Below are positions 56,056 through 62,280 of a DNA stretch of 64,000 bases, piece by piece. The DNA comes from Myxococcota bacterium. Lineage in GTDB: Bacteria > Myxococcota_A > Polyangia > Nannocystales > Nannocystaceae. Every line of letters begins with the position of its first letter. Within the stretch, counting starts at the first letter, position 1. Below the pieces are notes generated by a model. That model worked only from the letters and a program-made list of their open reading frames with translations, was not told the origin of the DNA and ran no database searches. The stretch spans positions 32,001 through 96,000 of the forward strand of contig JBCCHT010000040.1 in NCBI GenBank assembly GCA_039028615.1, read 5' to 3'. A program made the position numbers and the translations under genes.

Positions 56056-56087
56056 AAATTTCTCGGCGAGTCGTTGGAACTTTCTTC

Positions 56088-56116
56088 TTGACGATGCGTC
56101 TTGCATGACGCATAGG
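56088..56116 (+). promoter_or_regulatory. sigma70-like promoter with palindromic operator in the spacer
   Basis: TTGACG at 56088-56093; ATGCGTC-TTGCAT-GACGCAT at 56094-56113; weak -10 CATAGG at 17-bp spacing. Confidence 0.6.
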
Positions 56117-56125
56117 AAGTTCATC

Positions 56126-56254
56126 ATGACCACGAAGCGACAGATTCTCGATCGGAGCGAAGGGCTGCAGTCGCAGTGCCATCGTTTGGATTGGAATTTG
56201 CCCGTGGCCATGCTGAGCCCAGCCGCGGGCGCAACTCACCAGTTGGGTGAGTAA
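56126..56254 (+). CDS. Putative leader peptide (42-aa uORF)
   Basis: AGGAAG RBS 6 nt upstream; MTTKRQILDRSEGLQSQCHRLDWNLPVAMLSPAAGATHQLGE; atypical codon usage. Confidence 0.4.
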   Translation: MTTKRQILDRSEGLQSQCHRLDWNLPVAMLSPAAGATHQLGE

Positions 56255-56592
56255 GTTTCCAAACTTCAGAATTTGCGCGCCAGAGGGCCCTTAGCCGTTG
56301 ATTCGGCGGCCCTCTCGGTGGCCCCCGACGTTCGTCGGGCGGTGCATCGGCGCGGCGGTGGGGTCGGGATCCGAGGATAGGAGCCTGGTCCGAGCCCCCG
56401 CCGGAGCAAGCCGCATGTCGCCGGAAACGACAGCGGCCCGAGCATGACGATGGAGCTTTCGCGAAGGGCGTCCTCGACTGCATGGAGTCGAGCGGCGTCG
56501 TCGTGTTCGCCGTCTCGCGTCGGCACGCGGTGGCCCCGGCGTCGTGACCTCATGGAGAGGTTCGGCGACGCCGGGGCCGGGGCCCACTTTTC
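56234..56592 (+). ncRNA. Candidate structured RNA leader upstream of the EF-Tu paralogue
   Basis: Consecutive stems, a three-way junction (56439-56509) and a 13-bp GC stem (56532-56578) before a short U tract. Confidence 0.45.
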
Positions 56593-56620
56593 TCGAGTGT
56601 CCACAACAACGGATAGACCA

Positions 56621-57769
<1,149 letters not shown>

Positions 57770-57781
57770 AGACGACGATTT

Positions 57782-57826
57782 GGCCCGGGAGGCGGTGCCC
57801 CGAACACGGGGGCCGCTCCCGGGCCG
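57782..57826. terminator. Hairpin between convergent genes
   Basis: GGCCCGGGA...CCCCG-AACA-CGGGG...TCCCGGGCC. Confidence 0.55.
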
Positions 57827-60122: not shown

Positions 60123-60533
60123 ATGGCGCCGTCACCCCAGCTCAGCGACCAACAGCTCGCCTTCATGCGGGTGCTGTGGGACCAAGGAGAGGCCACTGCC
60201 CAACAGATGCAGGCGGCCTTGGCCGAGCAGGGAGTGACGTTGGCCCCCACCACGGTGGCGACCGTGCTCGGCCGCCTCGAGCGGCGCGGGCTGGTGGGGC
60301 ATCGCAGTCGCGGGCGGCAGTACGTGTATCGAGCTCGCGCCGACGAGCAGGAGATCCGCCGCACCATGCTGGCGCGTCTCACCGATTTTTTCTTTGGCGG
60401 GGACCCACAGGCGTTGGTTTCCCACCTCACCGCGGGCCACGGCTTGGGCCAAAAAGACCTGGATGAAGTTCGGCGGTTGATTGCCGAACGCGAACCGAAA
60501 AACCGGGAATCGAACGACGACGGCGATAGTTGA
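60123..60533 (+). CDS. BlaI/MecI/CopY family repressor
   Basis: MRVLW, LAPTTVATVLGRL, GRQYVY and FFGG. Confidence 0.93.
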   Translation: MAPSPQLSDQQLAFMRVLWDQGEATAQQMQAALAEQGVTLAPTTVATVLGRLERRGLVGHRSRGRQYVYRARADEQEIRRTMLARLTDFFFGGDPQALVSHLTAGHGLGQKDLDEVRRLIAEREPKNRESNDDGDS

Positions 60534-60570
60534 GGTCGCCGCCTCAAACCAACCTCGGAAGCAGGACCTC

Positions 60571-62280
60571 ATGGAGTGGCTGTTGACCTATGCGGTGCAT
60601 AGCACCGCACTGATCGCATTGGTGTGGTTGCTGACCACCATCATCCCCAAGATTTCTCTCGGCACCAAAGAAGCCCTATGGAAGGTAGCGCTGCTGGGTC
60701 CGCTGATGACGGCCACCGTGCACCAGGTGGCGGGCGTGCCTTCGGTGTTCGGCTCGTTGCCCGTGCCGTCGGCGTTGCGCACCGCGGTGGCCGAGAGCAC
60801 GCCGCCGCAGCCGTCTGCGCCCGTGGTGCTCGCGTCCAATGGCGGCGCGGTGCAGATCGCCACGACCGCCGCCGACGGTGGGCCTTCGGTGGAGCGACGC
60901 GTCGTTCGCCATCGGGCGGGTGACCTCGAGATCACCACCATTCGCCAGCGACAGGCGCCCACCATGGCGGCGGCTCCGGCCGTGGCCGCGCCCACCGAGC
61001 CCTCGCCGTGGCCGATGGTGCTGCTCGGGCTGTGGGGCGTCGGGGCGGTGCTGGGCCTGGCTCGACTCGGTTGGTCGGCGCGACGGCTCTCCAAGCAGCT
61101 CGCCGGTCGACGCGACGTCATCGAAGACCCCGTGCTCGAGGGCTACCTCGATCTGTGCTCCAAGGCGGGGCTCAAGAAGCGCCCGCGGCTGACCGCGTCC
61201 GCTCACCTGCGCTCGCCCATCGCCCTGGGGCGCCGCGAGATCTGCGTGCCCGAGCGCGCGGTCGACAGCCTCAGCGCACCGCAGCAGCAGGGCATGCTGG
61301 CCCACGAGCTCGCGCACCTCGTTCGCCACGATCCGGTCTGGAACGTGGCGACCGCGGTGTTCGAGGCGGTGTTCTTCTTCCAGCCCCTCAACTACCTGGC
61401 GCGGCGCAAGATCCAAGAGGTCGCCGAGTTCCAGTGTGACGACTGGGCCGCGCGTCAGACCGGCACCGGGGTGCACCTGGCCAAGTGCCTGGCCGAGGTC
61501 GCGGGTTGGGTCGAAGATGGCCCGCCCATGACCGCCGCCGCCACCTCCATGGCGGGCAGCGGCTCGCCCATCGTTCGCCGCATCACTCGCTTGCTGCACG
61601 AGCGACGCCGCGGCGGCCGAGTCCACCCGGTGGGTCGCGTGGCGCTCACCATCGGCACCCTGGGAGCGGTCATCGCGTTGGTGCCGGGGGTGTCGCAGGC
61701 CGAGCACGACGGCGCCGCTCCGCCGCCGCGCCGCATCACCGTCGCGAGCCTCGATGGCTCACCGCGCGGCGTGGTCTTCGAGGATCGCTCCGATGCCGCC
61801 CACGACCGCTCCGTCATCCGGGTGATGGCCGGCGACGAGATGGTGGAGATCAACGTGCAGGCGCCCAACGAGGTCCCGCTTCCGCCGCCTGCGCCCGAGC
61901 CTCCGCGCGGCGATCGCATGGAGATTCGGATCCACGGTCATGTCGGCCCGTGGGGCCCCTGGGGCTTCGACGACTCTTGGCTCGGCATGCTCGGTCTCGG
62001 CTCGGGGGGCTTCGAGATCCACCTGCGCGACGACGACGATTCGATCTCGTTCTTCGGTCACGGGGGTCACGAGCACCATCGCGCCCGGGCGCAGGCGCGG
62101 GCCAAGGAACGCGCACGTGCGCGGCTGGAGCGACATCGCGAGCGACTGGAGCGGCACGCCGAGCGACTGGAGCGGCGGGCGGAGCGAATCGAGCGAGACC
62201 TCGAAGAGGCCGTGCGTGAGGCGGTGACCGGAGCATCGTGGTCCGGCGAGCCCACCCGCATCGAGGTGGTCGAGCTGTAG
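60571..62280 (+). CDS. Peptidase M56 (BlaR1-like) membrane protein without penicillin-binding domain
   Basis: LAHELAHL..HD, FFFQPL, EFQCDDWA and IVRRI; C-terminal heptad repeats. Confidence 0.9.
   Translation: MEWLLTYAVHSTALIALVWLLTTIIPKISLGTKEALWKVALLGPLMTATVHQVAGVPSVFGSLPVPSALRTAVAESTPPQPSAPVVLASNGGAVQIATTAADGGPSVERRVVRHRAGDLEITTIRQRQAPTMAAAPAVAAPTEPSPWPMVLLGLWGVGAVLGLARLGWSARRLSKQLAGRRDVIEDPVLEGYLDLCSKAGLKKRPRLTASAHLRSPIALGRREICVPERAVDSLSAPQQQGMLAHELAHLVRHDPVWNVATAVFEAVFFFQPLNYLARRKIQEVAEFQCDDWAARQTGTGVHLAKCLAEVAGWVEDGPPMTAAATSMAGSGSPIVRRITRLLHERRRGGRVHPVGRVALTIGTLGAVIALVPGVSQAEHDGAAPPPRRITVASLDGSPRGVVFEDRSDAAHDRSVIRVMAGDEMVEINVQAPNEVPLPPPAPEPPRGDRMEIRIHGHVGPWGPWGFDDSWLGMLGLGSGGFEIHLRDDDDSISFFGHGGHEHHRARAQARAKERARARLERHRERLERHAERLERRAERIERDLEEAVREAVTGASWSGEPTRIEVVEL

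Follow-up and report, generated by a model that had tools for sequence, protein, structure and literature searches.

The window, which is the whole 64,000-nt stretch of DNA analyzed here, carries a second, divergent tuf gene at 56621-57769 on the + strand, the strand on which all features of its leader also lie. The encoded EF-Tu (382 aa) has intact GTPase motifs and is 54–58% identical to the housekeeping copy. It falls in a separate clade (39 of 125 tree rows, SH-aLRT 100) that was found in 38 of the 73 genomes of the myxobacterial family Nannocystaceae making up our family set. Substitutions occur at E. coli positions 216, 218, 259, 262, 333 and 334, which are linked to drug sites. An N-terminal extension of the protein from an ATG at 56444 is unsupported; homologues start at the same Met. 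The gene is followed by a hairpin (57782-57825), after which tRNA-Pro genes occur in four of six homologues but not in the window, where ARAGORN found no tRNA. Further along, at 60123-62280, the window encodes a BlaI-type repressor and an M56 peptidase (BlaR1-like) as a pair. Upstream of tuf lie a predicted promoter, a short leader ORF (uORF) and a series of hairpins.

Anatomy of the leader

The sigma-70-like promoter (TTGACG-N17-CATAGG, 56088-56116) has a start predicted from sequence at ~56122-56124. A strict consensus promoter scan did not call this site. In 12 of the 13 homologous leaders described below, TTGAC is found at the same spacing, and a small ATG-nnn-CAT palindrome across the −10 region holds a fixed position in 10 of these 12 promoters. 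No second TTGAC lies between the promoter-like site and tuf in the six tuf-bearing homologues. The window also has nested inverted repeats over the promoter (56077-56122), one at 56094-56113 and one pairing 56077-56085 with 56114-56122; homologues share only the ATG-nnn-CAT core. A promoter matrix was rejected as a means of defining a regulon: it returns general sigma-70-like sites. Its best match (G000 C50:12822, − strand, locus L164) combines a uORF of 19 codons with structured non-coding DNA that extends over several hundred bases; no tRNA was called there. At another locus, L163 (G000 C28:15500-18000), a promoter and a 20-codon uORF stand before an RbfA-like gene and rtcB.

The uORF has 42 codons (56126-56254). 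Its ATG lies 8–10 nt past the −10-like hexamer in all 12 leaders with a promoter, and the uORF is therefore predicted to be nearly leaderless. The window's uORF has no Pro enrichment (2 of 41 codons), and both of its Pro codons are among the last 16 before the hairpin H1. Because codons 2–28 show no protein-level selection (identity 0.705/0.732/0.790 by codon position; 43 synonymous versus 159 non-synonymous single changes), their conservation may be due to RNA structure alone. The first 28 codons are predicted to form a long hairpin, P0 (56130-56207), in an RNAalifold consensus of nine leaders, in which 17 of the 39 predicted pairs of P0 plus H1 are changed on both sides.

H1 (56234-56252) is a 7-bp hairpin with the loop AGUUG that abuts the uORF stop codon, making it a candidate for a ribosome-toggled element. 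Every cell of its alignment is paired (56/56) and four of its seven pairs covary. None of 500 shuffles scored as high, a count that is not a probability because the sequences are kin; controls slid along the alignment were at most 50% paired. The uORF stops at H1 in 13 of 13 leaders, at +18 (six leaders), −2 (six) or −9 (one) from the first base of H1, and in L003, the only frameshifted tuf leader, a new TAA sits at the 5′ base of H1 (−2). H1 on the stop codon is the covarying core of the module. Short alternative pairings of the H1 loop, inspected by eye, do not keep a conserved register. No U-tract follows H1, with at most three T in the next 8 nt in 13/13 leaders.

Beyond the stop codon lies an A/C-rich, weakly paired linker (56253-56281, 59% identity) that contains GAAUU (56269-56273), a motif that we take to resemble an RNase E site. 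Eight of 13 leaders have GAATT no more than 60 nt from H1; the other five lack it. In one relative, L166, about four head-to-tail copies of a 13-nt unit replace the linker just after H1. Two hairpins follow at 56282-56345, P2 (56282-56315) and P3 (56324-56339), in both consensus and single folds. Both recur at equivalent positions in the tuf/Pro-type homologues, where their sequences differ; some pairs are altered on both sides and several are broken, which suggests conservation less strongly than for H1, P0 or the last hairpin. Next comes a hairpin-rich spacer (56346-56531) with AUGGA motifs at 56450 and 56482 that is not conserved (26–34% identity to six homologues). The leader closes with a long hairpin (56532-56578) that is conserved in 7/7 tuf/Pro-type leaders, with 97% of cells paired, 3 of 15 pairs covarying and arms that are 90–92% identical. 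No conserved U-tract follows it; the next 8 nt contain at most one T in 7/7 of these leaders. This last hairpin is a candidate non-canonical stop or processing site. The six Arg/Leu-type leaders have no copy of it by pattern search. Two other origins for this region were considered and rejected. First, the last hairpin is not a REP-like repeat: its pattern has 26 strand-matches (13 places) in the genome, of which the others look like chance GC-rich sequence, and the only meaningful blastn match is the copy on contig C43. Second, the region is not a degenerate tRNA, since no cloverleaf forms, though relatives have a tRNA-Tyr here.

Folding of the region upstream of tuf

A sequence-only reading of this DNA had described 56234-56620 as one large structured non-coding leader, almost fully covered by stems and of no recognized RNA class. 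The stems that it named are all in the sequence: 56282-56289/56308-56315 (8/8 pairs), 56410-56414/56433-56437 (5/5), 56439-56452/56496-56509 (14/14, two of them G-U) and 56532-56544/56566-56578 (13/13, then GGGGCC and TTTT). The region folds better than its shuffles (387 nt, −207.4 kcal/mol, z −5.03; 0/100 shuffles equal), and Rfam returned nothing at gathering score for the window, only seven sub-threshold matches (E 1.6–9.6). Folding energy does not choose the strand because both strands have z near −5 (minus strand, −5.15). The + strand that the reading favored is supported instead by G-U pairs kept on that strand in H1 and the last hairpin, and by the conserved promoter-like site upstream. 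A 300-nt piece has z −4.44. Among controls from the same genome, four of 45 approximately called intergenic sequences scored as low, and none of 30 coding ones did. Thus, folding of the region exceeds chance, yet it is not unique within the genome.

Comparison with homologous upstream regions separates the conserved parts from the rest. There is covariation in H1, in the uORF hairpin and in the last hairpin, which lends weight to the earlier suggestion of an attenuator; the middle (56346-56531) is not conserved. The stems at 56351-56403, 56410-56437 and 56439-56509 all fall in this spacer, and most of the stems first noted are private to this genome. The UUUU proposed to follow the last stem is present, and among homologues it is likewise private to the window's genome. 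The limits given for the region need correction: the first 21 bases (56234-56254) lie inside the short ORF, and the element starts ~150 nt further upstream. Both the uORF and H1 at its stop codon went unnoticed in that reading, and they are the best conserved functional parts. The region is a real and partly conserved structure that forms the 3′ part of a ~500-nt leader, and not a free-standing RNA tied to EF-Tu.

Homologous leaders precede tuf and tRNA genes

Five further tuf leaders have the same layout; they come from three genomes of the genus and from two of nine metagenome pattern matches. The H1 pattern occurs six times in 5 of the 73 family genomes, twice before tRNA-Arg/Leu clusters, one of which is in the window's own genome. 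A search with a covariance model returned 19 matches at E ≤0.05, namely the seven training members, four new strong matches, all four of which precede Arg/Leu tRNA clusters, and eight weak matches (E 0.002–0.04), of which the one inspected (L203) has neither a tRNA nor a uORF. In total, there are 13 homologous leaders: six before tuf (four with tRNA-Pro behind), one before tRNA-Pro only and six before Arg/Leu tRNAs. The Pro-only case is informative. In G002, a 95% complete genome in which this tuf was not found, the whole leader including the last hairpin (L166) stands directly before four tRNA-Pro genes. The leader of the spare EF-Tu is the same module as the leaders of the Pro and Arg/Leu tRNAs. 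The leader, tuf and tRNA-Pro probably formed an ancestral unit; the window's copy has lost the tRNA-Pro genes and retains two Pro codons.

More distant leaders within the tuf clade (L012, L014, L015, L034, L043) have a uORF and a hairpin with a U-rich tail, and in other genera the same tuf is preceded by unrelated leaders. A search of named genomes at the protein level returned mostly housekeeping EF-Tu; of 80 loci, three belong to the clade, and one of these duplicates L009. Several further arrangements were seen. A tRNA-Tyr(GUA) gene lies between the uORF and tuf in L005, L010, L111-L113, L116, L118, L120 and L123, and in two close homologues without tRNA-Tyr (L114, L115), the Tyr codons have been lost. 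L006-L009, L113-L117, L121 and L123 in other genera have another conserved small hairpin motif in the 60 nt just upstream of tuf, in which GGCUGAC precedes a stem whose loop region carries GGAAAGAC. A second leader family stands before spare tRNA blocks at G000 C23:7427, C27:159051, C27:172632 and C43:30078; its uORFs end in Cys-stop inside a shared 13-nt motif, and likewise in four of five genus relatives. One spare cluster includes a tRNA-Arg with the rare anticodon GCG (L144:1878-1953).

Codon matching between leader ORFs and tRNAs

If the uORF reports on decoding, its codons should relate to the genes behind it. Over the last 16 codons before H1, the six Arg/Leu units have 8–11 Arg plus Leu codons and 0 Pro codons, the five tRNA-Pro units have 2–5 Pro codons, and the two units without a tRNA, the window's among them, have 2 Pro codons. 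A wider comparison gives the same picture. In the window's genome, a promoter and uORF were found by a fixed rule in 7 of 60 tRNA units (7 of the 13 multi-gene ones). With that rule, which was set after the clusters of this genome had been seen, the uORF-tRNA match is 0.371 versus 0.150, the true assignment comes out on top among 5040 permutations, and each of the seven uORFs ranks first for its own tRNA set. In relatives, which are kin and not independent, a leader was called in 8 of 26 units, with a match of 0.370 versus 0.186, 3 of 40320 permutations as good and one mis-pick; this sample consists of 27 loci picked by hand from the 150 listed of 301 tRNA matches, plus others. The mis-picked unit is L147, and L166 and L176 were missed by the rule. 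A Gly, Gly, Ala, Trp cluster (L168), absent from the set of the window's own genome, is also matched.

The tuf leaders of other genera show a similar relationship. A leader was called at 38 of 42 tuf loci, several of these calls being visibly wrong picks. The Tyr fraction is 0.081 in leaders with tRNA-Tyr (n = 7) versus 0.008 in those without (n = 31), and two tRNA-Tyr loci that the rule missed have ORFs that are Tyr-rich by eye. For Pro, the fractions are 0.093 (n = 4) versus 0.045 (n = 34). Across the leader family, then, uORFs are enriched in codons related to their output; the enrichment is weak in the window's copy, which has two Pro codons and no tRNA-Pro.

A proposed route from ribosome position to output

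What does the leader act on? Its output must act on RNA and not on a ribosome-binding site, because tRNA genes alone lie behind 7 of the 13 leaders. Equilibrium folds with a ribosome footprint gave no competing fold. They toggle H1 only, with P2, the last hairpin and the region of the tuf Shine-Dalgarno (SD) sequence constant under every footprint; the unpaired probability of the SD shifts by at most 0.11 in six leaders. With the footprint at the stop codon, H1 is lost in 13/13 leaders (0.00–0.05), largely by construction because the footprint covers H1. With a stall 18 nt upstream, H1 is kept (0.52–0.99).

Transcription termination of a familiar kind is no easier to invoke. A scan for intrinsic terminators (hairpin plus U-tract) found none in the leader. 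Among gene-end stems in the same genome, 108 of 557 have at least four T in the next 8 nt, versus 3 of 113 in a coding control, counts in which G-T pairs taken into stems may hide some T. No rho gene exceeded the TIGR00767 cut-off in any of the 73 family genomes (best score 73 bits versus 509; 8 of 14 control genomes reached it), which rules out a Rho-dependent model, and PF07497 was below its cut-off in the window's genome. The family looks like a GC-rich, large-genome lineage without Rho whose gene-end hairpins are mostly U-poor. A Rho-less myxobacterium is already on record in Haliangium ochraceum, according to PMC11347177.

Because the Rho, U-tract and SD routes all fail and footprints toggle H1 only, we favor sensing of ribosome position at the RNA level: the leader would let transcription enter the spare EF-Tu gene only when ribosomes slow. 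We put the probability of this reading at roughly 0.55. It builds on observations of the anatomy, the covariation, the placement of the stop codons, the codon matching and the lack of a rho match, and it takes the uORF to be translated. Transcription would start just before the uORF. A freely running ribosome would reach the stop codon and melt H1. In that case, the transcript would stop within the hairpin-rich spacer, the long last hairpin being the most likely site. Stalling at least five codons upstream would leave H1 folded, resulting in read-through. The sensed codons would likely be Pro in the ancestral unit (leader, tuf, tRNA-Pro) and Arg and Leu in the sister leaders, while the window's copy would likely answer slow elongation more generally. 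Both the direction in which control runs and the way in which the transcript is ended are inferred. The geometry also fits the opposite logic, with H1 as a stop or pause signal that is melted by a fast ribosome, and the last hairpin is only a tentative choice for the site of termination.

Control could instead lie at the promoter. A short-lived repressor might occupy the ATG-nnn-CAT palindrome at the −10 region, in the manner of TrcR at the cyanobacterial trn operon, leaving the hairpins as a passive spacer or processing scaffold. The palindrome in 10 of 12 promoters, the downstream hairpins that stay static in all folds and the precedent of TrcR (PMC10272220) speak for such a repressor, but it leaves unexplained both the codon matching and the uORF stops at H1 in three registers, and we consider it improbable. 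To a similarly low degree, the same ribosome sensor may work through RNA decay or processing, with the position of the ribosome exposing or hiding an RNase E site in the linker. The genome has an RNase E/G gene and one NusG, there is no rho match, GAATT follows H1 in 8 of 13 leaders, and the linker becomes more single-stranded with a ribosome at the stop codon in footprint folds of the seven tuf/Pro-type leaders. However, five leaders lack GAATT, and RNase J was not found with the query used. Cutting of a leader normally aids tRNA maturation and does not silence it, which also counts against this route.

A third possibility, and an unlikely one, is that the hairpins regulate translation of this tuf copy as a lineage-specific layer atop the leader, with CsrA, for instance, bound at GGA loops and around the SD. 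The genome has a csrA gene (G000 C44:13342-13491), followed by an ORF that we take to resemble fliW. The region has four ANGGA motifs, and five of nine GGA are mostly unpaired, one of them over the tuf SD. However, four ANGGA motifs are reached in 214 of 5000 shuffles, homologues have 0–2 ANGGA and 0–1 unpaired GGA, and such a layer is inapplicable to units with tRNA genes only. Least likely of all, and very improbable, is the original proposal of a separate ~370-nt structured ncRNA that partners and co-evolves with the specialized EF-Tu: the z of about −5 and the conserved, covarying ends of the region agree with it, but its middle (185 nt, 26–34% identical) is not conserved and varies from 218 to 288 nt in length, the leader also stands before tRNA genes without tuf, being whole in the 95% complete G002 where this tuf was not found, and the same tuf has unrelated leaders in other genera.

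Relation to known systems

There are likenesses between RNA-level sensing of ribosome position and several known systems, which are compared here as the cited papers describe them. First, the leader-peptide attenuators hisL and trpL (PMC12360218; bioRxiv 10.1101/834739) also have a short uORF with many codons whose decoding reflects the level of charged tRNA, and RNA hairpins coupled to ribosome position. Here, in contrast, the output is spare tRNA genes plus a spare EF-Tu, and neither a U-tract terminator nor a competing antiterminator was found in the leader. Second, in the Rho-dependent uORF attenuators tnaC, mgtL and corL and in Salmonella tufB autoregulation (PMC12360218), the stop codon adjoins an A/C-rich linker, and tufB also ties elongation speed to EF-Tu supply. 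The leader differs in that no rho passes the cut-off in 73/73 family genomes and the linker is only 20–30 nt. Third, the mycobacterial leaderless poly-Cys sORF attenuators of the “ribulon,” including the Ms5788A type (bioRxiv 10.1101/834739), and E. coli toiL (PMC12121999) share a leaderless or short-leader uORF that is itself folded, and the co-regulation of several loci by ribosome pausing. Those systems hide an SD. In the present leaders, tRNAs make up 7 of the 13 outputs, and the folds show no change in access to the SD. Thus, the leader works like a leader-peptide attenuator, yet it fails the tests for a terminator (classical attenuators), for rho (tnaC, tufB) and for SD masking (toiL, Ms5788A).

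The outputs, too, have precedents. The cyanobacterial trn operon, controlled by the ribbon-helix-helix repressor TrcR (PMC10272220, PMC8421152), provides a spare tRNA set for translation stress, together with rtcB and other translation-repair genes. It is one long array under a repressor, whereas here small blocks each stand behind their own codon-matched uORF; the consulted portion of PMC8421152 has no occurrence of “leader,” “attenuat” or “uORF.” Streptomyces tuf3 and actEF-Tu2 (PMC4342817, PMC7157823, PMC12309360) are likewise second, divergent translation factors kept for stress, with the difference that tuf3 is activated by WblC. Two actinobacterial second copies (L207, L208), taken as tuf3-like by position and divergence, have other substitutions and branch apart from the clade in the best tree, though an AU test does not reject a single clade (p 0.223). 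By eye, a short ORF and a hairpin also stand in front of these two actinobacterial tuf genes. In Listeria rli80-hflXr (PMC6310831), a stress translation factor, hflXr, is under a uORF attenuator. Reserve tRNAs and a reserve EF-Tu that serve in translation stress are already known, under the protein regulators TrcR and WblC. In the open-access literature, no paper was found that describes tRNA genes controlled by a leader peptide or uORF, or that deals with this EF-Tu clade.

Functional implications

What might such a leader mean for the family? A bolder view, which we hold only tentatively, is that a Rho-less lineage runs its spare tRNA blocks and its second EF-Tu through codon-matched uORFs. 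H1 would then serve as effector in a third kind of attenuation, one independent of Rho, of a U-tract terminator and of SD masking, and the leader would be a portable module that is retuned, to Pro or to Arg/Leu, by rewriting the last 16 codons. If sensing of ribosome position at the RNA level is correct, the speed of decoding at exactly the codons read by the spare tRNAs would feed back directly on the supply of those tRNAs and of the spare EF-Tu. The leader would also offer a small, experimentally tractable way into conditional transcript ending in a GC-rich bacterium that lacks Rho, through a covarying hairpin of 19 nt that exists in natural versions tuned to different amino acids.
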